Source: Rhodospirillaceae bacterium
GTDB lineage: Bacteria > Pseudomonadota > Alphaproteobacteria > Rhodospirillales > Rhodospirillaceae
Assembly (NCBI GenBank): GCA_019694335.1
Contig: JAIBCD010000003.1
Coordinates: 16,113 to 80,112 of the forward strand
Length of the DNA: 64,000 nt
Direction: 5' to 3'
In this document: in pieces, positions 293 to 64,000 of the stretch
How the letters are laid out: each line of letters starts with the position of its first letter
Numbering within the stretch: the stretch's first letter is position 1
Notes under the pieces: model-generated
The model's input: only the letters and a program-made list of their open reading frames with translations
What the model was told of the DNA's origin: nothing
Database searches by the model: none
Made by a program: the position numbers and the translations under genes

Positions 293-423
293 AAGGGTCA
301 TCCTGAACTGTTACGCCCAAGTTATAGCGTTGTTTCAATAGATTAGAAAGGTTCTCACTTTGCTCGACTGCCCTGCGGGCGCGAAACTTGACCTCCGGAG
401 TGACCCGGGGTACTGAGGGAATC

Positions 424-472
424 CGTGGTGATTTGAGACCGGATTGCGGCCACGTTAAAAACCGCTAAAAGG
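424..472 (+). promoter_or_regulatory. Candidate SAM-II-like (metA-motif) riboswitch aptamer in the metZ leader
   Basis: The sequence GGUGAUUUGAGACCGGAUUGCGGCCACGUUAAAAACCGCUAAAAGG lies upstream of a methionine-biosynthesis gene. It has a GAUUU stretch, a small hairpin (CCG-GAUUG-CGG) and a 3' A-rich CCGCUAAAA segment that could pair with the UUGCGG loop as a pseudoknot. This is resemblance from memory of the SAM-II consensus, not a covariance-model hit. Confidence 0.4.
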
Positions 473-484
473 TCGAGGGCTTAC

Positions 485-515
485 GCCCCCGCCGTTCCGG
501 TCGGGGGCTTTTTTT
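485..515 (+). terminator. Intrinsic terminator / attenuator in the metZ leader
   Basis: GCCCCCGCCG-TTC-CGGTCGGGGGC hairpin followed by seven T (509-515), 25 nt before the metZ ATG. The upstream gene is divergent, so this hairpin cannot terminate it. Confidence 0.75.
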
Positions 516-23955: not shown

Positions 23956-24058
23956 GCTTGCCTCGGGACGTGCGGGCTATTTCGCCCACGGCTTGCCTTG
24001 GACGTGTGGGCTATTTCGCCCACGGCTTGCCTTGGACGTGTGGGCTATTTCGCCCACA
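23956..24058. repeat. Tandem direct repeat, three copies of 34-35 bp
   Basis: Copy 1 (23956-23990) is GCTTGCCTCGGGACGTGCGGGCTATTTCGCCCACG. Copy 2 (23991-24024) is GCTTGCCTTGGACGTGTGGGCTATTTCGCCCACG. Copy 3 (24025-24058) is identical to copy 2 except for its last base. Copy 3 contains the last codons and the TAG stop of the minus-strand gene 24045..26720. Confidence 0.9.
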
Positions 24059-50312: not shown

Positions 50313-51482
50313 ATGCCACCCGAGAGCCCCGCCGCCCGCGAGACGTTAGGAGTCGCCCATAACGGGATCGCCCTGACGGAGCCGCTCGTCCTGCAGTCAG
50401 GCGTGACCCTGGCGGGCGTCACCGTGGCCTATCAGACCTGGGGCACGCTCAACGCCGACAAGTCGAACGGGGTGCTGGTATGCCACGCCCTCACCGGCGA
50501 CCAGTATGTGATCGGCACGCATCCGGTCACGGGCAAGCCGGGCTGGTGGAACGACCTGGTGGGGCCGGGGAAGATCATCGATACGGACCGGTTCTTCGTG
50601 ATCTGCGCCAATGTGCTCGGCGGCTGCATGGGGTCCACGGGGCCGAAGGACATCAACCCCGCCACCGGCAAGGCATGGGGTCTTTCGTTCCCGGTCATCA
50701 CCATCCCCGACATGGTCCAGGCCCAGGCCAAGCTGCTGGATCACCTCGGCGTGCGCCGGCTGTTCTGCGTCATCGGCGGTTCGATGGGTGCGATGCAGGT
50801 GCTGGAATGGGCGCACCGCTATCCGGAGCGCGTATTCGCCGCCGTGCCGATCGCCGGCTCATACCGTCACTCCGCCCAGAACATCGCGTTCCACGAAGTC
50901 GGCCGCCAGGCGATCATGGCCGACCCCGACTGGTGCCAGGGCGCCTATGCCGACGAAGGCAAGATCCCCAAGCGCGGCCTCGCGGTTGCGCGCATGGCGG
51001 CGCACATCACTTACCTTTCGGAAACCGCGCTGCACCGCAAGTTCGGCCGCCGCCTGCAGGACCGCGACGCGCTGACTTACGGCTTCGATGCCGACTTCCA
51101 GGTGGAAAGCTACCTGCGCCACCAGGGCTACACCTTCGTCGACCGCTTTGACGCCAACTCCTACCTCTACATCACGCGCGCCATGGATTACTTCGACCTG
51201 GCGGCGGAGAACAACGGCGTGCTGGCCGAAGCCTTCACCGGCACCAAGGTGCGTTTCTGCCTGATTTCGTTCTCCTCCGACTGGCTGTTCCCGACGGTGG
51301 AAAGCCGCGCCATCGTGCGCGCCCTCAACGCCGTGGCGGCGAACGTCAGTTTCGTCGAAGTGGTCTCGGACAAAGGCCACGACGCCTTTCTGCTCGACGA
51401 GCCCGAGTTTCATCAGACATTGCAAGGCTTCATCGACGGCTCCGCCGATGCGCACGGATTGCCGGCGCGGAGAAAGCCATGA
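50313..51482 (+). CDS. metX: Homoserine O-acyltransferase (MetX)
   Basis: Trimmed to MPPESPA at 50313. It has the alpha/beta-hydrolase nucleophile [12 protein letters not shown] and is followed by metW. Confidence 0.85.
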
Positions 51483-52108
51483 GTGAACAGAAGACCGGCG
51501 CCCCGCGCATTCGCGTAGACCTGCAACAGGTCGCCGACCTCGTGCCGCCGGGATCGCGCGTGCTCGACATCGGCTGCGGCGACGGCACGCTGCTGGCCTA
51601 TCTCACCGCGTTCAAGAAAGTGGATGGACGCGGCCTGGAACTGTCCATGGCGCGGGTGCGCGCCGCGGTCAGCCAGGGCCTGCCGGTGATCCAGGGCAAC
51701 CTGGAAAACGATCTCAAGGACTATCCCGCCGGCGCCTTCGACTACGCCATCCTCAGCCAGACCCTGCAGGCGACCCACAACCCCGCCGCCGTGGTCGAGG
51801 ACATGTTGCGCATCGCGCGCCGGGCGATCGTGTCGTTTCCCAACTTCGGCCATTGGCAGGTGCGGATGTCGGTGATGTTCGGCGGCCGCATGCCGGTGAC
51901 GCCGACCTTGGCGGACTCGTGGTTCGACACGCCCAACATCCATCTGTGCACGATCCTGGATTTCATCGACCTGTGCCGCGCCATGGGCGTGCGCATCGAG
52001 GAGAGCTTCGCGCTCGACGGCGCCGGGCGTAAACGCGACTTCGCAGCCACCAGCGGGATCGCCAACCTGCTCAGCGAGCAGGCGCTATTCGTGCTCGCCC
52101 GCGGCTGA
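51479..52108 (+). CDS. metW: Methionine biosynthesis protein MetW
   Basis: 209 aa, [12 protein letters not shown]...[12 protein letters not shown]...SFPNFGHW. The ATGA overlaps metX. Confidence 0.85.
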
Positions 52109-52846
52109 ACTCGCCGAGTTGCGCACGCCGTTGCCGGCGGGCCGCACCAACCCCTTGACCCGCGCCGTGGCCGGCGTGCCCGCGAACGGCGCCGCGTAGA
52201 TCTGCTTTTCCGCCTCCACCACCACCACGCCGGCGAAGGTCGGGAACCAGCGCGCGCCCAGATTCTCGATGCCGGTCGCCCAGGTGCCGAACAGCCGCCA
52301 CCACACCGGCGGCACGAACAAAGCCGTCGCGGTCTGCAACGGCACGAACAGGTTGTCGCGCAAAAGGCGCGTGATCTGGCCCATGGAGTAAGGCCGGCCG
52401 TGAGCGAAGGGCGCGTTCTCGGCGCGGGCCCACAGGCCGCGGCGGTTGGCCACCACCACCAGCAGCCGCCCGCCGTCCGCCAGCACGCGCCAGCATTCGC
52501 GCAGGAACGGGCGCAACTGGTCGCTGCCTTCCAGGCAATGCATCAGGATCAGCCGATCCATGGAGCGGTCCGGGAACGGCAAGGCATCCTCGGCCGACAG
52601 CGCCACCAAGCCCGGCGCGCCTTCGGGCCAGTGCACGACCCCCTGCCCGTCGGGCATCACCGCCACCACCCGTTCGGCCTCGCCCTGGAACAGCCCCAGG
52701 AAAGGCACCGCGAAGCCCACCCCCAGCACCCGCCGCCCCGCCACACTGGGCCAAATGGCGCGCAACCGGCGCGCAATCAGGCGGCGCACCAGCCGCCCCA
52801 TCGGGCTGCCGTAAAAGTCCCTCAGATCGACGATATCGGCCCACAT
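52085..52846 (-). CDS. Class I SAM-dependent methyltransferase (type 11-like)
   Basis: 253 aa, ...RRVLGVGFAVPFL..., DRLILMHCLE and LADGGRLLVVVANR. Its 3' end overlaps metW by 24 nt in convergent orientation. Confidence 0.65.
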   Translation of the reverse strand: MWADIVDLRDFYGSPMGRLVRRLIARRLRAIWPSVAGRRVLGVGFAVPFLGLFQGEAERVVAVMPDGQGVVHWPEGAPGLVALSAEDALPFPDRSMDRLILMHCLEGSDQLRPFLRECWRVLADGGRLLVVVANRRGLWARAENAPFAHGRPYSMGQITRLLRDNLFVPLQTATALFVPPVWWRLFGTWATGIENLGARWFPTFAGVVVVEAEKQIYAAPFAGTPATARVKGLVRPAGNGVRNSASSAAGEHE

Positions 52847-53086
52847 GAGAGATATCCTAGCGAGCCCCGCCGGAACGCGCCGGGACGCGGCGTAAAATTA
52901 ACGTAACTCATTGAAATATATCTATTCACGTTTGGACATCCAGGCCCAATCCGAGGATACTGCAGCCGGGGTCCGGAATGGTTAATCCGGTGCGAATGCG
53001 GGCGGAATGCGTTACTTTTGCGGGCCGCCGGTCAACTATTCGTAGAGTGCCGGCTGCGACCGGGGGCTAAGGGGTAGATTTCCAAG

Positions 53087-53869
53087 ATGGATTGGCGTCG
53101 GCGTTTAAAGCGCGGGTTCTCCCTGATCGAAATGGCCATCGTTTTGACGGTCATCGGGATCATCTTGTCGGGCGGTCTTCTGGCGGTGGCGCCGGTCCTG
53201 GAAAGCAGCAAAGGCAATGAGACCAATGCCAAGCTGGACCGTATCGAGCAGGCGCTGACTCTTTACGTCATTCGCTATGGCTGCCTGCCCTGTCCCGCGG
53301 AACCTGGCATCGCGAGCGGCACCGCGAATGCGGGCCAGTCTCATGGCGCTGCTTACTATAGCAGCGGCTGCACGACGGCCTGTGACGCGACGACCGTCGC
53401 GACGCAGGGCATCGTGCCGTGGGTGACTTTAGGCCTGTCGGAAGAAGAAGGGCGGGACGGGTATGGATACCGCATCGACTATGCGGTGACCGCTGCCCTT
53501 GTCGCCACCAATGGCATGGTACGGACCCCGCCCGCGACCTATCCCGCCGGTACGCTTGCTGTTGCCGTGTCGGCCGCAAATGATGCCACCGCGATCGCGA
53601 CCCGAACGAAGGTTTCGTCGACGGCGGCCTATGTCCTGATCAGCCATGGCGTCGATCACAGCCTAGCCTGGAACGTGGCTGGGAAGCAGCTTCCAGATCC
53701 GAATTCGGGGCCCGATCAGACCGAAAATTCCAATGGAACGCCGTTCGTACAGGATACGCCGGTCAAGAATGCCGGCACCTACACCTATTTCGACGACATT
53801 GTGCGCTTCCGCACGGCGCCGATGATCATCCAGTTGTGCGGCACAAACGCATGCGGCAACCCGGCCTAA
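53087..53869 (+). CDS. Prepilin-type N-terminal cleavage/methylation domain protein (large pilin or pseudopilin, 260 aa)
   Basis: The class III signal is MDWRRRLKRG|FSLIEMAIVLTVIGIILSGG, with Glu at +5 and a hydrophobic alpha-1 helix. There are three Cys pairs: CLPC, CTTAC and CGTNAC. Confidence 0.75.
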   Translation: MDWRRRLKRGFSLIEMAIVLTVIGIILSGGLLAVAPVLESSKGNETNAKLDRIEQALTLYVIRYGCLPCPAEPGIASGTANAGQSHGAAYYSSGCTTACDATTVATQGIVPWVTLGLSEEEGRDGYGYRIDYAVTAALVATNGMVRTPPATYPAGTLAVAVSAANDATAIATRTKVSSTAAYVLISHGVDHSLAWNVAGKQLPDPNSGPDQTENSNGTPFVQDTPVKNAGTYTYFDDIVRFRTAPMIIQLCGTNACGNPA

Positions 53870-53899
53870 CCGGACAAGGGTTCTTGGGGGATATTGGGA

Positions 53900-55057
53900 A
53901 TGATCCTGCAATCCATCGGCAGACTTGGCTTGGCCTGTGCGGTCCTGGCAGGTTTCGCCCACGACGCCGCGGCGCAGATCGAGGTGCCGGAAGAATGCCT
54001 CCGCGCGCTGCAGACCTATGAGCGCAGCTACCAAATTCCCCAAGGCCTGACGACGGCGATTTCGTTGGCCGAGGCCGGCCGCCCGATGGGCCCCAACGGC
54101 CGGCGCTTGCCGTGGCCATGGACGATCAACATCAACGGTCAGGGCCGGTTCTTCGATACCAAAGAGCAAGCCGTGGCTGAAGCCCGCAAACAGCTCGATG
54201 CGGGCCAACGCTCGATCGATGTCGGCTGCATGCAGGTGAACCTGCGCTATCATCCCACCGCCTTCCGCACCCTCGACGACGCCTTCGATCCCGCGACCAA
54301 CGTCGCCTACGGCAGCAAGTTCCTGGCCTCGCTGCACACGGTGCAGGGATCATGGGAAAAGGCCGTCGAGCGTTACCACTCCTCCGACGACAACCGCCGC
54401 GAAGATTACCGCGACAAGGTGATGGCGTTGTGGAACGGCGAGGTCCGTACCCTGGTCATGGATGCCGTGCAGGCGGAGAACACCAACACGCCGTACCACC
54501 GCGCCCTCAATGCCTTTGCCGCGGGCGAGTACACCGATGCCCTGGAAAAATACCAGGCGATCGTCGCGAGCAACCCCAAGGACCGGCTCGGACTGCTCGG
54601 CGTCGCCATGACGTATGAGAAAATGGGCCAGGCCGGGGATGCCGATAAGGCCTACGGCCGCTACATCGCGGCCCAGCCGGACGACCCGGCGGTGCTCGCG
54701 GACCGGATCAAGGCCGCCAGGGCGCTCCCGCCGGCGGAAGCGCGCGCGCGCCTTGAGGCCCTGGCCAAAGCCGGTGTTTCCGAATCCGAGCTGTTCGCCG
54801 CCTTGTCCGAGGTGCTCGCGGCAACGGGCGACAACGAGGCGGCTTTGTCCTATGCCGAAAAGGCGGTCAAGGGCGCGCCGTCGGTGGTTCTCTACCAGCT
54901 CAACGCCGCGATCCTGGCGGACCGCCTGAAGCAGCCGGCGGTTGCCGTGCGCTATTACGAGAACTTCCTGGCCCGCGCCGAACGGCAGCCGGCCCTCATT
55001 GAAGTATCGATCGCGGAAATACGCAATCGCGTGGAGTTTCTGCGCGCACGGATGTAA
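53900..55057 (+). CDS. Specialised lytic transglycosylase (SLT, IagB/VirB1-like) fused to TPR repeats
   Basis: It has a signal peptide (MILQSIGRLGLACAVLAGFAHDAAAQ). The SLT motifs are AISLAEAG (catalytic Glu context) and IDVGCMQVNLRYH. The C-terminal half is TPR-like (YTDALEKYQAIVASNPKD..., YIAAQPDDP...). Confidence 0.7.
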   Translation: MILQSIGRLGLACAVLAGFAHDAAAQIEVPEECLRALQTYERSYQIPQGLTTAISLAEAGRPMGPNGRRLPWPWTININGQGRFFDTKEQAVAEARKQLDAGQRSIDVGCMQVNLRYHPTAFRTLDDAFDPATNVAYGSKFLASLHTVQGSWEKAVERYHSSDDNRREDYRDKVMALWNGEVRTLVMDAVQAENTNTPYHRALNAFAAGEYTDALEKYQAIVASNPKDRLGLLGVAMTYEKMGQAGDADKAYGRYIAAQPDDPAVLADRIKAARALPPAEARARLEALAKAGVSESELFAALSEVLAATGDNEAALSYAEKAVKGAPSVVLYQLNAAILADRLKQPAVAVRYYENFLARAERQPALIEVSIAEIRNRVEFLRARM

Positions 55058-55094
55058 CACATAAGAACACGCGACCAAAAAACGGGGTGGGGAC

Positions 55095-56237
55095 ATGGAA
55101 ATCACGGAACTTCTGGCATTCGCGCAAAAGAACAAGGCCTCCGACCTGCATCTCGTGGGCGGCAAGGAACCGATGGTGCGCATCGACGGCGGATTGAAGC
55201 CGATCAAGACCGGCGACCTCTCGGCCGATACCGTCAAGAACATGCTGTACTCGGTCATGACCGAGGAGCAACGCTCGGAATACGAAAACGAGAAGGAAAT
55301 CGACTTCGCGATCGCGTTCGGCGCGGAATCGCGCTTTCGCGTCAATGCCTATACCACCGCCACCGGCTCGGCCGCGGCGTTCCGTGAAATCCCCACCAAG
55401 ATCCCCTCGCTGGAACAGCTCAACGCGCCCGCGATCTTCAAGGAATTCGCCCAGATCGAGCGCGGACTGGTGCTGGTGACCGGCCCGACCGGATCGGGCA
55501 AGTCCACGACGCTGTCGGCGATGATCAACTGGATGAACGAGAACACCGACAACCACATTCTCACCGTCGAGGATCCGGTGGAATTCGTCCACGGCAAAAA
55601 GCGCGCGCTGATCAACCACCGCGAAGTCGGCAAGCACACCAAGTCCTTCGCCCGCGCGCTCAAGAGCGCCTTGCGCGAAGATCCCGACGTGATCCTGGTC
55701 GGGGAAATGCGCGACCACGAAACCATTTCACTGGCCCTGACCGCGGCGGAAACCGGCCACCTTGTCATGGGGACGCTGCATACCAGTTCCGCGGCCAAGA
55801 CCGTGGATCGCATCATCGACGTGTTCCCGTCCGGCGATAAGGAAATGGTCCGCGCCATGGTGGCGGGCTCGCTGCAGGCGGTGATCAGCCAGGTGCTCCT
55901 CAGGCGCAAGGGCGGCGGCCGCGCCGCGGCGCACGAAATCATGGTGGGCACCTCGGCGGTGCGCAACCTGATCCGCGAGAACAAGATTCCGCAGATCTAT
56001 TCGATGATCCAGGTCGGCCAGCGCTATGGCATGCAGACCATGGACGATTCCATCAAGCGCCTGGTCGAGCAGGGCGTCGTCGACCCCGAGGAAGCTTCCG
56101 CGATGAACGCCAAACTCAACGACAGCGGGCCGTCGACGACCGGCGGCGGCGAAGCCGCGCCTGCGCCCCGGCCCGCCGCACCGCAGGCATCGCAGCCGGC
56201 GGCAGCGCCCGCCGCGAAGTCGCGCTCGATCTTCTAA
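55095..56237 (+). CDS. pilT: PilT-type pilus retraction ATPase
   Basis: 380 aa with Walker A GPTGSGKST, Asp box VEDPVEF, Walker B DVILVGEMRD, His box TGHLVMGTLHT and PilT signature AVRNLIRENK. A Pro/Ala-rich C-terminal tail of about 35 aa is an extra. Confidence 0.85.
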   Translation: MEITELLAFAQKNKASDLHLVGGKEPMVRIDGGLKPIKTGDLSADTVKNMLYSVMTEEQRSEYENEKEIDFAIAFGAESRFRVNAYTTATGSAAAFREIPTKIPSLEQLNAPAIFKEFAQIERGLVLVTGPTGSGKSTTLSAMINWMNENTDNHILTVEDPVEFVHGKKRALINHREVGKHTKSFARALKSALREDPDVILVGEMRDHETISLALTAAETGHLVMGTLHTSSAAKTVDRIIDVFPSGDKEMVRAMVAGSLQAVISQVLLRRKGGGRAAAHEIMVGTSAVRNLIRENKIPQIYSMIQVGQRYGMQTMDDSIKRLVEQGVVDPEEASAMNAKLNDSGPSTTGGGEAAPAPRPAAPQASQPAAAPAAKSRSIF

Positions 56238-56296
56238 GGCACTAACGTTACCTGCGCCGAACGACCGGCGGCCAACGCCGGCGCGGCCAGAACAGG

Positions 56297-57442
56297 ATGG
56301 GGGATTCCATGATCGACGCCGAATTTCAGGGTTGGTTGCGTGAATTGGCGGGGCCGGGCGGCTCCGACCTTTATGTGACCGTCAACGCGCCGCCGGCTTG
56401 GCGTGGCGGCTCGGGCTTCCGCAACCTGCGGGACAAGCCGCTGACGGTCGAGGAAATCAACCGCATCTTCTCCAGCTTCCTGAACGAGAAGCAGCGCAAG
56501 GAATTCGACACCACCGGCGAATTCAACATGGCCCTGATGATGGAAGGCGTGGGCCGGTTCCGCCTCAACCTCTTCAAGCAACGCCAGATGCCCGGGATCG
56601 TGGCGCGCATCATCCGCGCGGAGATCCCCACCCTCGCCCAGTTGAAGCTGCCGAGCCTGTTCGGCGACCTGGTGATGGAAAAGCGCGGATTGATCTTCGT
56701 GGTCGGCGGCACCGGTTCGGGCAAATCCACCACACTCGCTGCGATGATCGGCCATCGCAACGAAACCGCCCCGGGTCACATCATCACCATCGAGGATCCG
56801 GTCGAATACGTGCACGATCATAAAAAGTGCATCGTCACCCAACGCGAGGTCGGCGTGGACACCGACAGCTTCGACGCCGCCCTCAAGAACACGCTGCGCC
56901 AGCACCCCGACCTGATCCTGATCGGCGAAATCCGCGACATGAAAACCATGGAGCATGCCATCAACATCGCCGAGACCGGGCACCTGGCCATGGCGACCTT
57001 GCATGCCAACAACGCCAATCAGGCGATCGAGCGCGTCACCAACTTCTTCCCGATCGAGATGCACCACCAGATCTTGTTGAACCTGTCCCTGAACCTGCGC
57101 GGCATCATCTCCCAGCGCCTGGTTGCGAAGAAGGAAGGCGGCCGCGCCGCCGCCCTCGAGATCATGCTCAATCAGGGCTACATCAAGGAGCTGATCGGCA
57201 AAGGCGAGATCAAGGAATTGAAGAAGGTCATGGAGGAAAATGCCCATAACGGCATGCAGACCTTCGACCAGGCGCTGCTCAAGCTGTTCCAGGAAGGCAC
57301 GATCAACGAGGAAACCGCACTGGCGGAAGCCGACAACGTGGGCGACCTCAAGCTCAAGATCAAACAGGCCAACATCGCCTCCTCGGGCAAGGGCGGCGGC
57401 GGATTGAAGGACGTGGATACGTCGAAGCTGTCGCTCGGCTAG
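56297..57442 (+). CDS. pilU: PilU-like second PilT-family ATPase
   Basis: 381 aa with GGTGSGKST, IEDPVEY, DLILIGEIRD and TGHLAMATLHA. It lacks the A(I/L)xNLIRE motif, having GYIKELIGKGE instead. Confidence 0.75.
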   Translation: MGDSMIDAEFQGWLRELAGPGGSDLYVTVNAPPAWRGGSGFRNLRDKPLTVEEINRIFSSFLNEKQRKEFDTTGEFNMALMMEGVGRFRLNLFKQRQMPGIVARIIRAEIPTLAQLKLPSLFGDLVMEKRGLIFVVGGTGSGKSTTLAAMIGHRNETAPGHIITIEDPVEYVHDHKKCIVTQREVGVDTDSFDAALKNTLRQHPDLILIGEIRDMKTMEHAINIAETGHLAMATLHANNANQAIERVTNFFPIEMHHQILLNLSLNLRGIISQRLVAKKEGGRAAALEIMLNQGYIKELIGKGEIKELKKVMEENAHNGMQTFDQALLKLFQEGTINEETALAEADNVGDLKLKIKQANIASSGKGGGGLKDVDTSKLSLG

Positions 57443-57451
57443 GCGCCCGCT

Positions 57452-58198
57452 TCAGCCGGCGGCGCGCTCACTTTCTTCCAAAGCGGCGAGGAATGCACGC
57501 TCCAGCGATTGGGCGCCCAATCGGCTGACGAAATCCCGGGGCGTGCCCAGGAAGATGATTCGGCCGGCGTGCAGGACGGCGATGCGGTCGCAGATCTCCT
57601 CGATATCCGACAGGATATGCGAGCTAAAGAACACCGACCGGCCGGCAGCCTTGCTCTCCATCAGGCGGTCCTTGAGCATCACGCGCGCGCGCGGGTCCAG
57701 ACCGCTCATGGGCTCATCCAAGATCATCAGCGCCGAGTCCACGAGGAAGGTAGCCACCAGGCCAAGCTTCTGGCCCATGCCTTTGGAGTAGGTCTTGACC
57801 TTGCGGTCGATCGCGGCCGGATCGAGATCGAGCCCCGCGGCAATGGTGCGCGCCCGGTCGCGGTCGATCGTCTGCCCGAAGTACGCGAGCATGATTCCGA
57901 GGTACTCCCAGCCATAAAGCTGTGGCGACGGCTGGAACTTCTCCGGGAGATACACGAGATTGCGCCGGGCCACGGGTTCGGTACAGGGTTCGCCGAACAG
58001 TTTGATGTCCCCCGCGGCCTGCCTGAGACCAAGGATGGACCGGATCATGGTGGTCTTGCCGGCCCCATTCAGCCCGACCAGGCCGAACACTTCACCGGAC
58101 TGCACGGCGAACGAGACGTCCGCGAACACCTGCTTTTTGCCGTAACTGGCGGAAACGGCCGCGAGTTCCAGGGGCGGCGCCCCCGTGGCCGGACTCAC
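57452..58198 (-). CDS. ABC transporter ATP-binding protein (ABC-2/DrrA-like), no adjacent permease
   Basis: 248 aa with Walker A GLNGAGKTT, signature YSKGMGQK, Walker B LMILDEPMSGLD and H-loop SSHIL. The GTG start overlaps the TGA of the upstream gene (GTGA). Confidence 0.8.
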   Translation of the reverse strand: MSPATGAPPLELAAVSASYGKKQVFADVSFAVQSGEVFGLVGLNGAGKTTMIRSILGLRQAAGDIKLFGEPCTEPVARRNLVYLPEKFQPSPQLYGWEYLGIMLAYFGQTIDRDRARTIAAGLDLDPAAIDRKVKTYSKGMGQKLGLVATFLVDSALMILDEPMSGLDPRARVMLKDRLMESKAAGRSVFFSSHILSDIEEICDRIAVLHAGRIIFLGTPRDFVSRLGAQSLERAFLAALEESERAAG

Positions 58199-58656
58199 TG
58201 CACCCGCCCCTCAACGACGATGCCGGATTTGGCCACGAACGTCTGGTTGGGTCCGAGGCGGACGGGGCGCATACCCATGGCGCTCAAGGGCACCAGCAAC
58301 TCGACCGATGACGGTGAAATGTCGGTCACCTTAAAGGCTTGGAAATCCTGGTGCGGTTCGATCGGCACACCGTTCACCCAGATGACCCAATCTGTCGGGC
58401 TGAAATAGAGAATACTCGAGAGATAGAGCGACGCGTTCTCGACGGCGTTACCCGCATTGGCCCCAGCCCCGGCATCCGCCTGTCCGATACGACTCTGGAT
58501 ATCCGTGAGCTCATCGGTCGTGAACATAAGGGTATCGGGAACGCGCGCATCAGAGACCGCAACCGGCGCATCGGCGGATTTGGCGTCGGCGGCAACGGTG
58601 TCATGAAGCCACAGCAAGCCGACAAATGCGACAAATGCGAAGGTGACAGTCCTCAT
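58195..58656 (-). CDS. Small secreted protein, possible PilP/MshK/GspC-HR-like
   Basis: 153 aa with a signal peptide (MRTVTFAFVAFVGLLWLHDTVAA). The C-terminal pattern LYLSSILYFSPTDWVIWVNGVPIEPHQDFQAFKVTDISPSSVELLV resembles the L.L.GI....A.iNG......G......V..I....V.L pattern of HR/PilP domains. This rests on my pattern recognition only. Confidence 0.4.
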   Translation of the reverse strand: MRTVTFAFVAFVGLLWLHDTVAADAKSADAPVAVSDARVPDTLMFTTDELTDIQSRIGQADAGAGANAGNAVENASLYLSSILYFSPTDWVIWVNGVPIEPHQDFQAFKVTDISPSSVELLVPLSAMGMRPVRLGPNQTFVAKSGIVVEGRVQ

Positions 58657-59312
58657 GGCTTTTGCTCATTGGCCAAGGCGGTTCGCCACACCAGGTCCAT
58701 CTCGCCGGTCACGATCGCACCTTTCTTACTGATTTGTGCAAGCATATCTGCGGTCACTTTCGGCGGCCGCGAAAGCTTGAGGGACGTCAGCACCGCCGAA
58801 CCGGGAAAATTCCGGCGTAAATCGGCGGTGAATCCGTAGATCTGCCCATCGAGCGGCGACCCGAGCTTGATCTTGATTGACTCGACGCTGACGCGATAAG
58901 CCTGGGCTTGGGTCTGGGCCTGGTTTGCCGTTGGCGGTGCGGCTCTGTCATTGGCGGCCGCGAATTCGGCGGTCATCTCGGTCAAGCCATGTTCCTGGGC
59001 CAGGCTTTGAAGCTGTTTGAGGGCATCGCGCCGTGTGTGGGGCACCAGCCGATCCCCCTTCATCAGCTTTTCGAATTGTTCGGTGTTTTCAGTGACGAAT
59101 TTGTAGTCGGCGTTGGCCGAGGCCGCATCCCGCGTGGCTTGATCGATGGACCTTTTGAGCCGTGCGCTTTCGGTGACCGCACCGTCGAGCGTACCGCCGA
59201 GCACTTCGAGCAGTATGACGAATAGAACGGCCGAACTGACCAGCACGGCCAGGGAAATCATCACCTTGCGCGGCAAATCCGGAATCTTGATGCGGATTTC
59301 GGGGAGTTTCAT
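58653..59312 (-). CDS. Bitopic PilO/MshJ/GspM-like assembly protein
   Basis: 219 aa with a short cytoplasmic N-terminus, one TM (VMISLAVLVSSAVLFVILLEVLG), a coiled-coil and a C-terminal globular part. ATGA overlaps occur at both ends. Confidence 0.5.
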   Translation of the reverse strand: MKLPEIRIKIPDLPRKVMISLAVLVSSAVLFVILLEVLGGTLDGAVTESARLKRSIDQATRDAASANADYKFVTENTEQFEKLMKGDRLVPHTRRDALKQLQSLAQEHGLTEMTAEFAAANDRAAPPTANQAQTQAQAYRVSVESIKIKLGSPLDGQIYGFTADLRRNFPGSAVLTSLKLSRPPKVTADMLAQISKKGAIVTGEMDLVWRTALANEQKP

Positions 59313-60904
59313 CGCGCCACCTTCACAATACGGAATTCGGCGCGGAACGGCTCGTCGGAGTGAGGAGCTGTATCAAGACCGAGAACATCTGATAGTCCGC
59401 CCGAGAATGTCTGGCTGGCCTGGGCCGCCAGCGGCGCCACGGTCATCTGCACGCGATAGTCTTTGCCGAAGCTTTCGTTCAGGCGACTCTCGAGGCGGCG
59501 CGTCACTGCAACGGCTTCATCGGCCGTCACAACTACACTCGGCAACTGCATCCCCGCGACCAGTACATATTCCGATTTTTCCCCCGCCGGCGTACCCGGA
59601 GCGGGTACTGTGACCTGCTGGCCGAGCACGCCGCTGTTGATGCTGAGGCTGGTCACGACCGCGTCGCTCTGTAGAGCGCGCGCCAGAGCTTGCAACGGCG
59701 GAACGATGTCGATCTGGCCCACATCCAGGGTTTTATCAACCTCGATCGCGCTTCGGACCCGGCCCGGCTCGTAGGGCATCCCGCCCGCCAGATTGCGAGC
59801 CGAGGTCAGAGCCGCATTCTTCTGATTTAGTTGCGCTTGCAACGCGGTGTTCTGATCGTTGATCTCCAGCAACTGGTTGGTCGTCCACCCCGCCCAGATC
59901 AGAACCGCCGCCGCCGCGACACCAGCGACATAGGGCGCCGCCAAAAACGCGAGTTCGCGAATATCATCCATGGTGTCGCCCATGGCGAGCGAGCGAGTCA
60001 GAGGCAGCAGCGGCCTGCGTTTGGAAGCGAACCAGGCGGCATGCAGCACGTCACCGAAAGCCTGGTCCTCGCGGCCGAGGGAGCCGAGATTGAGGAGCAT
60101 CCCGGCCTCATATGGCGTGTAGACCGATGCCGAGCGTGCGCCATCCCAGGTCAGATCCTCGAGTACCTTTTTGTTATCGACCGAAGTCAGCACTACCAGA
60201 TCCAGGGGCTCACCCACCTGATAGCCGAGGCGGCGGATATAAGTGATGGTCGCCTTGAAATCCCTGAGAATCATGTCGGCGAAGTCTTCCGGCGGCGTTT
60301 CCGGCGGTGGCGCTTGCGTCAGACGGGTAAGAGAAAGCCGGCCGTTCTTGGTAATGATCTGGCGGAGGCCGCCGGTGACGTTGATGCTGACAAGATGACG
60401 CCAGTGGTTCTTGCCTTCCTCCGCGGGCGGTACGTCCTTCGGCGCGAGCGCCTCCAAGATATCCGCATTCTCGGGCGCAATCGCGTAATAGCCCCCTTTG
60501 TCGTTGGGCAGACTTTCAACGAACTCAACCCAGCCGGGGATATGTCCATCCAAGGGCACGGCGGCAAATTCATAGACAAGGGTCTTTTTGTCGGTTTCGG
60601 TGACCATGCGCGCGCCGCGCAAATTCTGACCTGGATAGGCCATGTTGATATGGCGGGCGAGCACCTTGCGACGGTCGAGAATGCTGACCTTCGGGATCTC
60701 TTCTTCCTTGGAGGACTGGTCGAGGGTGTCGATGAGCACCGACAATTTGGCCTTCGGATCCTCGGCCAGCGCCTCTCCCAGTTCTTCCTGAGCCATGGCG
60801 GGATCGGGCGAACCCAGCCAAGCATTGGCGACCTTTTTGTCCACCAGCTTAGTCAGAACGACATTGTCGTCGCCGATGCTCAGGACATATTCGCTGCGCG
60901 CCAT
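59309..60904 (-). CDS. Bitopic GspL/MshI-like (PilM-PilN fusion-like) assembly protein
   Basis: 531 aa. A cytoplasmic domain of about 335 aa is followed by one TM (LAFLAAPYVAGVAAAAVLIWAGW), a coiled-coil (NQLLEINDQNTALQAQLNQKNAAL) and a periplasmic domain. It sits between the platform protein and the PilO-like gene. Confidence 0.5.
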   Translation of the reverse strand: MARSEYVLSIGDDNVVLTKLVDKKVANAWLGSPDPAMAQEELGEALAEDPKAKLSVLIDTLDQSSKEEEIPKVSILDRRKVLARHINMAYPGQNLRGARMVTETDKKTLVYEFAAVPLDGHIPGWVEFVESLPNDKGGYYAIAPENADILEALAPKDVPPAEEGKNHWRHLVSINVTGGLRQIITKNGRLSLTRLTQAPPPETPPEDFADMILRDFKATITYIRRLGYQVGEPLDLVVLTSVDNKKVLEDLTWDGARSASVYTPYEAGMLLNLGSLGREDQAFGDVLHAAWFASKRRPLLPLTRSLAMGDTMDDIRELAFLAAPYVAGVAAAAVLIWAGWTTNQLLEINDQNTALQAQLNQKNAALTSARNLAGGMPYEPGRVRSAIEVDKTLDVGQIDIVPPLQALARALQSDAVVTSLSINSGVLGQQVTVPAPGTPAGEKSEYVLVAGMQLPSVVVTADEAVAVTRRLESRLNESFGKDYRVQMTVAPLAAQASQTFSGGLSDVLGLDTAPHSDEPFRAEFRIVKVAR

Positions 60905-60907
60905 GCC

Positions 60908-62116
60908 TCAAAATCCCATTTTTGAAAGGCTGTCGTAGATCGGGCCCATCACCCCGGCCACGATCCAGGCCATGATTGCGCCCGAGATCACGGTCATGGC
61001 GGGCTCGACCGAGCCGATCATGGCGTCGATCGCTTCATCCACGTCCTTGTCGTAGAAGCTGGTGACGTTATCCATGACGCCGCCGAGATTACCGCTGTCC
61101 TCGCCGATCTTGATCATGCGGCAGACCAGGCTGGGGAATTGACCGGAGGCGCGCATCGCGGCCGACAACGGCTCGCCGTTCTGCACCTGTTGGCGGACGC
61201 TTTTCATGGATTCCTCCAGGCAGCGATTGCCCACCACGCGCTGGGCGGTTTCCAGGCACTGTAGAATCGGCACACCGCTTTGGAACATCACGGCAAAGAA
61301 ATGAGCAAAACGCGAGATGGCCAGCTTTGTGGTCAACACGCCCATCATGGGGACACGCAGCGCCAGGCATGACAGCGCATAGCGCGCGGTCTCCGAGACC
61401 TTGGATATCCCTACGATCGTGCCGACGATGACAATCGGCGTCAGCAGCATGACCCACCAATAATTGACGACGAAATCCGATGTGGCGATCAACGCCAGCG
61501 TGACCGGCGGCAGGGTTTGGCCGTTGGACTTGAGGAACCCGACAATGCCGGGCACGACGAAACCCATCATGAACATCAACATACCGGTGATGATGATCAG
61601 CACCACCGCCGGATAGCGCGCGGCCTTCACCACTTTTTGGCGGATCGCGTCTTCCCACTTTACGTGTTTGGTCAAGTGCTGGAAGGCCTCGGTGAGTTTG
61701 CCGCTTTCCTCCCCCACCGCGATCAAGGAAGCGTACAAATCGCCGAAAATCTTGGGGTGTTTCTCGAAAGCCTGTGAAAGCGGCGTACCGCTGCCGACAT
61801 CGCTGATCAGCATCGTCGTCATATCGCGGACACGCGGGATGTCGGTGGAATCGCGCACGTCGGTGAGCGAATCCAGGAGCGGCACGCCCGCGGCCTGCAG
61901 CTGTTCAAGATGCATGAAGAACTGGATTTTCTCGCGCGCGCTGATGCCGCGGGCCGCGGCCTGAGCGATGCCGCCGGTCTTGGACACCTTGCTGTCGAGC
62001 AGCATCAAGCCGGTCTGCTGCAGCTGCTGATACAGATCGCTTTCGTTGTTCGCGGATATCTTGCCGCGGACGGTACGGCCGGCGTCGTTCAGAGCACGGT
62101 ATGCGTATTGCGGCAT
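60908..62116 (-). CDS. pilC: Type II secretion / type IV pilus platform protein (GspF/PilC family)
   Basis: 402 aa, MPQYAYRALNDAGRTVRGKISANNESDLYQQL..., with two T2SSF repeats and 3 TM segments. Confidence 0.85.
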   Translation of the reverse strand: MPQYAYRALNDAGRTVRGKISANNESDLYQQLQQTGLMLLDSKVSKTGGIAQAAARGISAREKIQFFMHLEQLQAAGVPLLDSLTDVRDSTDIPRVRDMTTMLISDVGSGTPLSQAFEKHPKIFGDLYASLIAVGEESGKLTEAFQHLTKHVKWEDAIRQKVVKAARYPAVVLIIITGMLMFMMGFVVPGIVGFLKSNGQTLPPVTLALIATSDFVVNYWWVMLLTPIVIVGTIVGISKVSETARYALSCLALRVPMMGVLTTKLAISRFAHFFAVMFQSGVPILQCLETAQRVVGNRCLEESMKSVRQQVQNGEPLSAAMRASGQFPSLVCRMIKIGEDSGNLGGVMDNVTSFYDKDVDEAIDAMIGSVEPAMTVISGAIMAWIVAGVMGPIYDSLSKMGF

Positions 62117-62125
62117 CGGATCTTT

Positions 62126-64000
62126 CTAGAGGCGGTCGGTAAAATCGACGATCTTCATGGCGGCGTCGAGGCTGGTTTTTCCCTCCAGAACCTTGGTCAC
62201 CGCGTCCTCGATCATCGGGACGAAACCGCCCTTTTCCGCCGCCTTCTTGACCTGGCTGAGCGGCGCTTCGTTAAGCACCAGCTCATCGACCTCTTCATTG
62301 AACGGCAGGATTTCGGAAGCCGCGATCCGCCCCTTGTAGCCGGTCTTGCGGCAGTTATCGCAGCCCCTGGCATGGGCGATCATCGGCGGATTGGCCGGAT
62401 CGGCGCGCAGCAGCTTGCACTCCTCGGCGGTCGCCGGCTTCATTTCCTTGCAGTCGCACAGCTTGCGCACCAGGCGCTGGGCGATGATGCCGATGATGTT
62501 GCCGGACATGAGGCTGGGTTTGAGACCGAGATCGATGAGGCGGGGGATACAGCCGGCGGCATCGTTGGTGTGAAGCGTGGTGTAGACTTGGTGGCCGGTC
62601 ATGGCGGCGCGCAGAGCCATGGTCGCGGTGCCGCTGTCGCGCACTTCGCCCACCAGGATCACGTCGGGATCCTGGCGCATCAGGGTGCGGATACCTTCGG
62701 AGAAGCTGAGCGAGCTGCCTTCGCGCACCTGCGCCTGGCGGATCAGCGACAGTTCGTATTCCACCGGATCCTCGAGCGTCATGATGTTGACGTCGAGGGA
62801 GTTGATGTACGCCATCATGGCGTAGAGCGTGGTGGTCTTGCCCGAACCGGTGGGCCCCGTGACGATGATGATACCCTCGGGCTTTTGCACCATCTTCTTG
62901 ATCAGCGCGAAATTGTGCGGCGTGTACCCCATCTTGTCGATGGTCACCAGCGTCTGGGACTTGTCGAGAATACGGAGCACGACGTTCTCGCCGTGGATGG
63001 TCGGCAGCGATGAGGCGCGGAAGTCGACCTTGCGGTTGCCGATTTCCAGCGTGAAGCGCCCGTCCTGCGGGTTGAGGCGGTCGGCGATATTCATGCCGCC
63101 CATGAGTTTGATTCTGTGGCAGGCCGCGGCCCAGTGGCGCTTGTGCAGGGTGCGGATCTGGGTCATTTCGCCGTCGATGCGATAGCGCAGGCGGAGGAAG
63201 TTGCCTTCCGGCTCGAAGTGCACGTCCGAGGCACCGCTCTTGATGGAGTCGAGCAGCAGCGCGTTCACCAGCCGCACCAGCGGGTGCAGATAGCCGCCCT
63301 CGGTCTGTTCGACGTATTCGGTCTCCTCGTCGTCGCCGGCTTCGCCCGATTCGAGTTCCTTGAGGATGCCTTCGATGGAAAGCTCGTGCCCGTAGTACTG
63401 GTCGATGGCCTTCTGAACGTCGGTGTCGGAGCACACCAACGGCTGGACATTGGTGCCGGCGGGGAAGAAGCGCTTGACCTTGTCGATGGCCAACACATCG
63501 TAGATATCGGCCATGGCAAGGCGCAGTGTCTTGCCGTCGAAGCCGACCGGGAACGCGCGGTAGCGCTGCGCGGCTTCCTTGGGCAGAAGCGCCAGCGCTT
63601 CGGGCTCGACCACGCTCGAGCCCGGCGAGAATCTCTGGAAGCCCGAGCTCTCGGCCAGCACCGCCGACAGCGCCTGTTCAGTGATGAAACCGAGATCGAC
63701 CAGCAGCTCGCCGAGCAGCTTGTTGGACTTGCCCTTTTCCTGGAACGCGACGTCGAGCTGATCCTTGGAGATCAGGCCGCGCTGGACCAGCAGGTCGCCG
63801 ATACGGGCGGTGGTCGGTTTGGTCGCCTCGGCGAGAACCGCCGACAACTTCTGCTCGGTGATGAAGCCGAGCTCGATGATCACTTCACCGAGGAGTTTCG
63901 TGGACTTGGATTTTTCCTGGAACGCGACGTCGAGCTGTTCCTTGGTGATTAGCCCCTTTTCCAGCAGGAGATCGCCGATGCGCACTGTGGGCGCCGCTTT
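62126..64000 (-). CDS. PilB/GspE/MshE-family assembly ATPase with tandem MshEN-type N-terminal modules (5' end probably beyond the window)
   Basis: It has Walker A GPTGSGKTT, LEDPVEYEL, DVILVGEVRD, TGHQVYTTLHT and a tetracysteine CDC...CDNC. The N-terminus has two copies of RIGDLL..(K/R)GLI(T/S)K(E/D)QLDVAFQEK-5 aa-LLGE....LGFITEQ.LSAVLAE. The frame stays open from the GTG at 63985 to position 64000 (KAAPT-), so the real start is likely off-window. Confidence 0.85.
   Translation of the reverse strand, partial: KAAPTVRIGDLLLEKGLITKEQLDVAFQEKSKSTKLLGEVIIELGFITEQKLSAVLAEATKPTTARIGDLLVQRGLISKDQLDVAFQEKGKSNKLLGELLVDLGFITEQALSAVLAESSGFQRFSPGSSVVEPEALALLPKEAAQRYRAFPVGFDGKTLRLAMADIYDVLAIDKVKRFFPAGTNVQPLVCSDTDVQKAIDQYYGHELSIEGILKELESGEAGDDEETEYVEQTEGGYLHPLVRLVNALLLDSIKSGASDVHFEPEGNFLRLRYRIDGEMTQIRTLHKRHWAAACHRIKLMGGMNIADRLNPQDGRFTLEIGNRKVDFRASSLPTIHGENVVLRILDKSQTLVTIDKMGYTPHNFALIKKMVQKPEGIIIVTGPTGSGKTTTLYAMMAYINSLDVNIMTLEDPVEYELSLIRQAQVREGSSLSFSEGIRTLMRQDPDVILVGEVRDSGTATMALRAAMTGHQVYTTLHTNDAAGCIPRLIDLGLKPSLMSGNIIGIIAQRLVRKLCDCKEMKPATAEECKLLRADPANPPMIAHARGCDNCRKTGYKGRIAASEILPFNEEVDELVLNEAPLSQVKKAAEKGGFVPMIEDAVTKVLEGKTSLDAAMKIVDFTDRL

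Follow-up and report, generated by a model that had tools for sequence, protein, structure and literature searches.

A type IV pilus locus, very likely complete and retracted by PilT and PilU, inherited within a clade of uncultured Rhodospirillaceae-like Alphaproteobacteria

What kind of machine is encoded at the right-hand end of a 64,000-nucleotide (nt) stretch of a Rhodospirillaceae bacterium genome (GenBank assembly GCA_019694335.1, contig JAIBCD010000003.1, positions 16,113 to 80,112; this whole stretch is called the window below), and did its host acquire that machine from elsewhere? A first-pass annotation had read positions 52847-64000 as a horizontally acquired filament locus that mixes a gene order resembling type II secretion systems (T2SS) with the retraction ATPases of type IVa pili (T4aP). 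To answer these questions, we re-located all ten open reading frames (ORFs) of the locus (window 52847-64000), profiled their products with Pfam and NCBIfam, and examined gene content, homology, predicted folds, synteny and composition. We conclude that a complete type IV pilus machine of ~18 genes, retracted by PilT and PilU and inherited vertically within its clade, is very likely encoded here, with this segment as its promoter-distal half. It is an undescribed pilus variant and not a foreign island.

The ten ORFs lie where the first-pass annotation had placed them and in the same order, and its family labels for the prepilin, SLT-TPR, PilT, PilU, ABC, T2SSF platform and T2SSE-MshEN proteins hold at the level of Pfam and NCBIfam scores. 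The features of the window part of the locus are as follows (aa, amino acids; TM, transmembrane; GC, guanine plus cytosine).

52847..53086, no strand: intergenic spacer 5' of the plus operon, 240 nt, 56.7% GC
53087..53869, plus: type IV pilin-like protein, 260 aa (PF07963 N_methyl and TIGR02532)
53894..55057, plus: secreted SLT-TPR lytic transglycosylase, 387 aa (PF01464 at 22.9 bits, cutoff 21.3, and several TPR families)
55095..56237, plus: PilT retraction ATPase, 380 aa (TIGR01420 at 470.8 bits, cutoff 319.1)
56297..57442, plus: PilU-type accessory retraction ATPase, 381 aa (TIGR01420 at 423 bits, cutoff 319.1)
57452..58198, minus: ABC-transporter ATPase of the ABC-2/DrrA type, 248 aa (PF00005; DrrA/NodI/GldA-type NCBIfam matches)
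58195..58656, minus: periplasmic 153-aa protein with signal peptide, linker and C-terminal beta domain, without family matches
58653..59312, minus: bitopic 219-aa protein with N-terminal TM helix, coiled coil and C-terminal domain, without family matches
59309..60904, minus: 531-aa protein with actin-like cytoplasmic domain, TM helix, coiled coil and periplasmic alpha/beta domain, by predicted fold
60908..62116, minus: inner-membrane platform protein of the GspF/PilC/MshG family, 402 aa (PF00482 at 182.8 bits; TIGR02120 at 319.9 bits, cutoff 424)
62126..64000, minus: extension ATPase of the PilB/MshE/GspE superfamily, cut at the window end (PF00437 at 390 bits and PF05157 MshEN)
63650..63985, minus: two tandem MshEN-type modules at the N terminus of that ATPase (NF053729 at 118 bits in two stretches, cutoff 38)

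The two operons converge as described, with the stop codons of pilU and the ABC gene 9 nt apart. Re-measurement of the minus-operon junctions returned the reported values (9 nt, 3 nt, ATGA, ATGA and GTGA), the last being the GTG start of the ABC ATPase gene, the final gene of the operon, which overlaps the stop of the 153-aa gene. On the plus strand, the gaps of 37 and 59 nt stand, and the gap given as 30 nt is 24 nt unless the ATG at 53900 is used. No terminator-like structure was found between the convergent pilU and ABC genes (57442-57452), and transcripts from the two sides would overlap unless terminated inside the opposite coding region.

A secretin, a prepilin peptidase and further pilins had been reported as missing, which is true inside the window alone. 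A metagenome contig that encodes the platform protein (L001) is 99.96% identical to window 57258-64000 (6743 nt) and extends 8116 nt past the window. All three components lie in these next 8.1 kb, in the same operon, and their apparent absence is a window-edge artefact. In L001, the following genes share the orientation of the minus operon.

L001, minus-operon orientation: TPR protein, cut by the contig end, in an MshN-like position
L001:714-1757, minus-operon orientation: MshM-like AAA_22 ATPase, 347 aa (PF13401)
L001:1754-2530, minus-operon orientation: A24 prepilin peptidase (PF06750 and PF01478), kept in relatives
L001, minus-operon orientation: secretin, 699 aa, with Secretin_N_2 and Secretin domains (MshL is the best NCBIfam model)
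L001, minus-operon orientation: 250-aa membrane protein with about six TM helices (6-TM protein)
L001, minus-operon orientation: 231-aa protein
L001, minus-operon orientation: pilins of 270 and 227 aa

The same contig gives the full length of the extension ATPase as 633 aa, with the true start 27 nt past position 64000. The complete locus thus seen comprises ~18 genes in two convergent operons, of which the window holds about half, and components that seem to be missing near a window edge should not be counted as absent. A synteny scan of one genome per GTDB species recovered 30 such loci, all in metagenome-assembled genomes (MAGs) of uncultured Rhodospirillaceae/Alphaproteobacteria. Gene order is identical in essentially all 30: MshM-like ATPase, peptidase, secretin, 6-TM protein, 231-aa protein, 270-aa pilin (one to three copies), 227-aa pilin, extension ATPase, platform, 531-, 219- and 153-aa proteins and ABC ATPase, with the genes for PilU, PilT, the SLT-TPR protein and the 260-aa pilin converging from the opposite strand.

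Between the platform and the ABC ATPase lie the 531-, 219- and 153-aa proteins, which had been labelled GspL-, GspM- and homology region (HR)-like. None of these labels could be obtained by sequence, and that of the 531-aa protein alone is backed by a predicted fold. Searched singly, the three proteins had no Pfam or NCBIfam match, and a Pfam search of every family member at a permissive E-value was also empty; neither PilM_2, PilN, PilO and PilP nor T2SSL, T2SSM and T2SSC matched any locus protein or orphan family member. The three family profiles showed no similarity to any sequence in the PDB, and the alignment profile of the 219-aa family, run against 5.8 billion proteins, retrieved the same clade only, without Pfam domains. 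Comparison of the trio with Aeromonas MshI1, MshI2, MshJ and MshK by hhalign gave probabilities of at most 10% with narrow and broadened profiles, in contrast to Aeromonas MshI2 and MshJ themselves, which do match the PilN and PilO Pfam models. The 531-aa protein has an exact counterpart (100% identity), annotated as hypothetical, in the MAG of a Rhodospirillaceae bacterium, and 122 close homologues, all unnamed. An exhaustive hidden Markov model search extended this family to 873 clusters (50% identity) of similar length, of which 421 reach E ≤ 1e-30. The named clusters are all hypothetical proteins of Alphaproteobacteria/Rhodospirillales and include one from a cultured strain, Telmatospirillum sp. 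J64-1 (WP_142849657.1); a search of PLSDB plasmids with the 531-aa protein found no match.

Predicted structures were more informative for the 531-aa protein. Its AlphaFold2 (AF2) model (predicted local distance difference test score, pLDDT, 69.7) has an N-terminal alpha/beta domain, a TM helix at about residues 318-336, a helix of ~65 residues and a C-terminal alpha/beta domain. For the N-terminal part, Foldseek returned PilM (5eoy and 2ych), FtsA and the EpsL cytoplasmic domain (1w97) with E-values from 1e-7 to 5e-6, and the predicted architecture is the one seen in GspL, MshI or a PilM-PilN fusion. In the 219-aa protein there is a single N-terminal TM helix (residues 17-35), and its family aligns colinearly, if weakly, with the periplasmic half of the 531-aa family (hhalign probability 72%, E = 3.5e-5), the pattern expected of a PilN/PilO or GspL/GspM pair; it is a candidate PilO/GspM/MshJ analogue. 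For the 153-aa protein, AF2 predicts a beta domain at residues 76-149 (pLDDT 80-91). Foldseek returned no significant match to this model, with weak compact matches to GspC-HR (3oss_C) and PilP (2lc4) as mere hints, and we regard the protein as a candidate PilP/GspC-HR-like secretin connector. The trio represents three large families without annotation that apparently do the work of PilMNOP or GspLMC, which is useful for annotation and may help to show which features of the alignment complex are essential.

More distant homologues of the 531-aa protein (25-28% identity) place the trio in a wider context. All five that we examined sit in one shared cassette, ordered as MshEN ATPase, platform, 531-like, 219-like and 153-like (148-365 aa) proteins and ABC ATPase, the last at the same position in 5/5 loci. 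The genes around these cassettes vary: in L039, two PilT paralogues and a TPR gene converge on the cassette as they do in the window; in L040, a pair of pilin genes and a weakly matching ABC-2 permease homologue lie upstream, with PilT-like and SLT genes downstream; and L041 has a clear ABC2_membrane gene near the cassette. Because its position is kept in every cassette examined, the ABC ATPase belongs to the assembly cassette as an integral, conserved part and does not adjoin it by chance. Judging from its topology, the 6-TM protein is likely the permease of this ATPase, and the two, possibly with the 231-aa protein, would perhaps form an ABC-2 module; the 6-TM profile had a chance-level match at best among PDB sequences. 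To our knowledge, PilG-PilH-PilI of Myxococcus xanthus is the sole precedent for an ABC transporter in a pilus cluster. It is described as lying in the pil cluster (PMC6060248, which cites Wall and Kaiser 1999). The analogy is one of gene content: in both cases a pilus cluster includes genes for an ABC ATPase, for a polytopic membrane protein and for a small third protein. Unlike in M. xanthus, the ABC ATPase gene here is translationally coupled to the genes of the assembly complex, and its position is conserved in each cassette examined. A transporter coupled to a pilus module could make the long-puzzling PilGHI-type requirement in Myxococcus testable.

We then considered the motors. The extension ATPase carries a Walker A and a tetracysteine motif, preceded by two MshEN modules of 53 aa each (63827-63985 and 63650-63808) that are alike at 40/53 aa and 121/159 nt. 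Among 26 orthologues, this cyclic di-GMP (c-di-GMP)-type module is a single copy in 22 and tandem in 4 (L013, L022 and L031 among the latter), and its presence suggests that the ATPase is probably switched on by c-di-GMP. The ATPase of one distant cassette (L037) is 839 aa long, which may mean a further expansion at the N terminus. On the opposite strand, PilT has the Walker A sequence GPTGSGKST and an AVRNLIRE motif at 55956-55979; the AIRNLIRE motif is absent from the PilU-like paralogue, and a PilT/PilU distinction by this motif agrees with published work (PMC6762196, PMC6821130).

Among solved structures, the nearest relatives of the extension ATPase are Thermus PilF (445 bits) and Geobacter and Myxococcus PilB (409-419), followed by EpsE (343) and BfpD (107). 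Its core is 38-44% identical to every reference class, and at 39% it is no closer to MshE than to GspE or PilB. Because BLAST and phmmer scores against MshE, PilB and GspE did not discriminate, we built a small neighbour-joining tree (336 conserved columns, 200 bootstraps), a rough method with a small reference set. In this tree, a single clade with 100% support unites the ATPase of the window with three orthologues and with those of the five distant cassettes. Aeromonas MshE pairs with a Legionella homologue that adjoins an MshM-like gene, also with 100% support, and neither clade includes the GspE or PilB/PilF references. Support for the branching among these groups is 26-51% only.

The 260-aa pilin has the leader MDWRRRLKRG followed by FSLIEM, with Cys pairs near the C terminus. 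Its orthologues in relatives share 38-54% identity with it, and it probably serves as an accessory or second pilin. The SLT-TPR gene that follows is syntenic in relatives, and an SLT gene also sits beside the distant cassette in L040; the enzyme would open the peptidoglycan for the machine. Upstream of this operon, a TAACyCATTG box (52904-52913) is conserved across an alignment of 21 orthologous spacers (L005-L033), and a sigma-70-like TGGACA-N17-GATACT element ~20 nt past the box (52933-52961) is conserved in 21 orthologous spacers as TTG-N17-.A.ACT. Together they may be a putative regulator site and promoter for the operon of the 260-aa pilin, SLT-TPR, pilT and pilU genes. On the other side of the locus, a strong hairpin (14-bp stem, T-rich tail) is found immediately 3' of the gene for the 270-aa pilin (L001 7250-7281, ~750-780 nt past window position 64000), and this gene has its own intergenic regions and occurs in one to three tandem copies in relatives (L012, L022, L026 and L028). 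An attenuating terminator and tandem copies are typical for a major-pilin gene. The downstream hairpin, the separate intergenic regions and the tandem paralogues therefore lead us to consider the 270-aa pilin as probably the major subunit.

Is the locus, as had been proposed, a recently acquired genomic island with a foreign type IV filament system? Its composition could be read in this way, since the mean GC of its genes is 4.4 points under that of the window core (0.616 vs 0.660; Mann-Whitney p = 1e-4), GC in 2-kb windows is 0.60-0.64 in the locus and 0.62-0.73 elsewhere, and GC at codon position 3 (GC3) is 0.79 vs 0.84; a lower-GC spacer at the left border and mosaic identity in one relative (L006, considered below) also favour an island. 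The drop in GC is ~4-5 points and not the hand-counted 50-62% vs 68-70%, and the 240-nt spacer that had been called AT-rich has the 56.7% GC listed above. However, it falls mainly on codon position 2 (0.436 vs 0.495), a reflection of amino-acid composition, and GC3 of PilT, PilU and the extension ATPase (0.86-0.87) is within the core range of 0.78-0.91. The codon-adaptation index, with the window core as reference, is the same in locus and core (p = 0.40) and highest in PilT, PilU and the extension ATPase. In 21/21 relatives, the pilus genes are below their flanks in GC, by 5.2 points on average, and this dip moves with host GC over ~52-70%. Gene order is constant in the ~30 species-level relatives, the two methyltransferase genes that flank the window locus are retained in 22 loci, and relatives with more similar locus proteins also tend to have more similar flanking genes (mean identities, Spearman 0.67, p = 7e-4, n = 22). 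The window has no tRNA genes, none of the ten proteins profiled in 52847-64000 resembles an integrase or transposase, and the named family members are all alphaproteobacterial. Shared synteny, co-divergence with the flanks, the recurrent GC dip and core-like codon adaptation thus leave recent horizontal acquisition unsupported; we regard it as extremely improbable and largely refuted. Instead, the locus was present in the ancestor of a clade of uncultured Rhodospirillaceae-like Alphaproteobacteria and has been passed on vertically within it.

A different question is whether the machine builds a surface pilus at all, as we think it does, or is a T2SS or some other pseudopilus-based exporter. 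A secretion system would explain the order of ATPase, platform, bitopic actin-like protein, small bitopic protein and periplasmic connector, which is that of GspE-F-L-M-C; GspF is the top-scoring model for the platform (320 bits), the 531-aa protein is built like GspL and resembles the EpsL cytoplasmic domain in structure, and a lytic transglycosylase, an ExeA/MshM-like ATPase and an ABC exporter within the operon would all fit. However, two PilT-family ATPases are conserved in the locus, and PilT is typically lost in T2SS (PMC6668835). The GspE (467.7 bits, cutoff 630), GspF (319.9, cutoff 424) and GspD (117.5, cutoff 351) equivalog scores are all under their cutoffs, the extension ATPase does not group with GspE, and the secretin scores higher on the MshL than on the GspD model (204 vs 117 bits). 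The pilins are 227-270 aa long and resemble GspG/GspH in their N-terminal helix only, at 24-30 bits where the cutoffs are 80-89, and neither a GspH-I-J-K set of pseudopilins nor T2SSL, T2SSM or T2SSC matches were found in the locus. An exporter of this kind is very unlikely. A standard mannose-sensitive haemagglutinin (MSHA) pilus of the MSH class, diverged in Alphaproteobacteria, deserves more attention, and we compared the locus with that of Aeromonas caviae (L038). MSH systems derive from T4aP, are almost always encoded at a single locus with mshA, E, G, L and M as mandatory genes, have been reported from Gamma- and Epsilonproteobacteria and Chrysiogenetes, and never carry a prepilin peptidase gene at that locus (Denise et al. 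2019, PMC6668835). Our locus resembles them in its single-locus encoding, its GspF-type platform, its extension ATPase with an N-terminal MshEN domain, its MshM-type ATPase (44% identity over 276 aa to Aeromonas MshM, E = 5e-70), and the TPR protein that adjoins this ATPase in the MshN position. The secretin carries Secretin_N_2 and, like Aeromonas MshL, a lipobox; it is 27% identical to that protein in the secretin domain. MshL is its best model, at 204 bits on TIGR02519, under the cutoff of 250, followed by GspD (117.5, cutoff 351), PilQ TIGR02515 (76.6, cutoff 284) and TIGR02520 (34.8, cutoff 287). Vibrio cholerae MSHA is retracted by PilT (PMC9815625, PMC7096442), and PilT/PilU, read here from the genes, would serve retraction likewise. 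Since MSHA is itself a derived T4aP that PilT retracts in V. cholerae, the tension that had been claimed between an MSHA-like gene order and PilT/PilU is weaker than it seemed. In contrast to MSHA, the extension ATPase clade is apart from Aeromonas/Legionella MshE, each with 100% bootstrap support; the counterparts of MshI, MshJ and MshK have no detectable sequence relation to them; a prepilin peptidase, PilT and PilU, an ABC transporter and an SLT-TPR enzyme are encoded inside the locus; there are about three large pilins and no MshB/C/D/O/P/Q-like set; and gene order and an alphaproteobacterial host differ as well (PMC6668835 for the peptidase and the host range). We therefore consider a standard MSHA pilus unlikely.

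We also compared the locus with the remaining known systems. It shares with T4aP a PilT and a PilU above the TIGR01420 cutoff, pilins with class III signal peptides and short leaders, an extension ATPase whose nearest solved relatives are PilF and PilB, and a PilM-like fold in the 531-aa protein. It differs in that PilM, PilN, PilO and PilP homologues are not detectable by sequence, the PilM and PilN equivalents would be fused into one GspL-like protein, the PilQ score is far below its cutoff (76.6 vs 284 bits), MshM-like and TPR components are present, the FimU-PilVWX-PilY1 set was not seen, and everything lies in one locus; the ATPase scores 494.9 bits on the PilB equivalog TIGR02538 (cutoff 675.65) and is outside PilB/PilF in the tree. 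Type IVb pili do not fit (BfpD at 107 bits vs 409-445 for PilB/PilF; secretin TIGR02520 at 34.8 bits, cutoff 287), nor do Tad/Cpa pili (TadA-family TIGR03819 at 54 bits, cutoff 373, and no Flp or TadB/TadC matches in the locus). The separate ATPase clade (100% support) and the sequence-orphan trio thus bear out the first-pass view of a non-canonical type IV filament machine that mixes MSHA- and T2SS-like features with PilT/PilU. Whether it amounts to a distinct, unnamed class of type IV filament in Rhodospirillales-like Alphaproteobacteria, as separate from MSH, T4aP and T2SS as these are from one another and with a new role in biogenesis for the ABC transporter, is a question to which we give a tentative answer: this is quite possible, if somewhat short of probable. 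The features that would define such a class are its own ATPase clade, the orphan trio, an ABC transporter obligately tied to the cassette, MshL/M/N-like outer parts, and PilT with PilU in the locus.

We suggest that the machine would work as follows. The prepilin peptidase, encoded outside the window, would process three or more large pilins, which the 633-aa ATPase would polymerise through the GspF-type platform, probably upon activation by c-di-GMP via its one or two MshEN modules. The 531-, 219- and 153-aa proteins would bridge this motor to the MshL-like lipoprotein secretin, while the MshM-like ATPase, the TPR protein and the SLT-TPR enzyme may help secretin insertion and passage through the peptidoglycan. 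PilT, helped by PilU, would retract and depolymerise the fibre. The ABC ATPase and the 6-TM protein, perhaps joined by the 231-aa protein, would form an ABC-2-type transporter, which may be an obligate module in pilus biogenesis. The pilus may serve in adhesion, twitching or DNA uptake.

Several points weigh against this reading of a complete, vertically inherited pilus machine. A four-member minor-pilin set and a PilY1-like adhesin were not recognisable in the 19 kb seen. The roles proposed for the 219- and 153-aa proteins derive from size, topology and gene position, with the Foldseek result for the latter below significance; the permease call derives from topology and weak ABC2_membrane matches in 4/8 members; and c-di-GMP binding by the ATPase is inferred from a domain model. 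All genomes that carry a close system are MAGs, and we know the system here from its genes. Finally, the 531-, 219- and 153-aa proteins and the ABC ATPase of L006 are only 62, 43, 63 and 69% identical to those of the window, no closer than in far more distant genomes. In this relative (JAYRKL010000035.1, compared with window 51479-62116), the methyltransferases are 89-92%, PilT/PilU 91-92% and the platform 84% identical, a mosaic that suggests intra-clade recombination or faster divergence of the assembly and ABC segment.

Alphaproteobacteria are usually described with Tad/Cpa pili and without PilT. The locus adds to this class a very likely complete, PilT/PilU-equipped and probably c-di-GMP-gated pilus that is ancestral to a widespread uncultured clade, with a core cassette that reaches hundreds more alphaproteobacterial protein clusters. 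A literature search found no description of such a system in Rhodospirillales or Alphaproteobacteria. Hundreds of "generic" systems of the type IV filament superfamily have already been reported, and against that background the find is not startling; the system is well delimited, and a cultured relative makes experiments approachable.

Some further observations concern other parts of the window and a further locus. A SAM_alpha (SAM-II) riboswitch at window 415-488 on the plus strand (63.5 bits, gathering threshold 36), 5' of an ORF at 540-1730, is the only Rfam match and fits an alphaproteobacterial host. The 891-aa ORF at 24045-26720 on the minus strand has the highest GC in the window, 72.6% (GC1 0.78, GC2 0.61). 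On a 365-kb plasmid of Legionella adelaidensis (NZ_LR134433.1; L049, 265-270 kb), an AAA-family ATPase gene and a hypothetical gene are followed by a gene for a GspE/PulE-family ATPase, which groups with Aeromonas MshE at 100% bootstrap support, and these genes may be a plasmid-borne MSH-like system.

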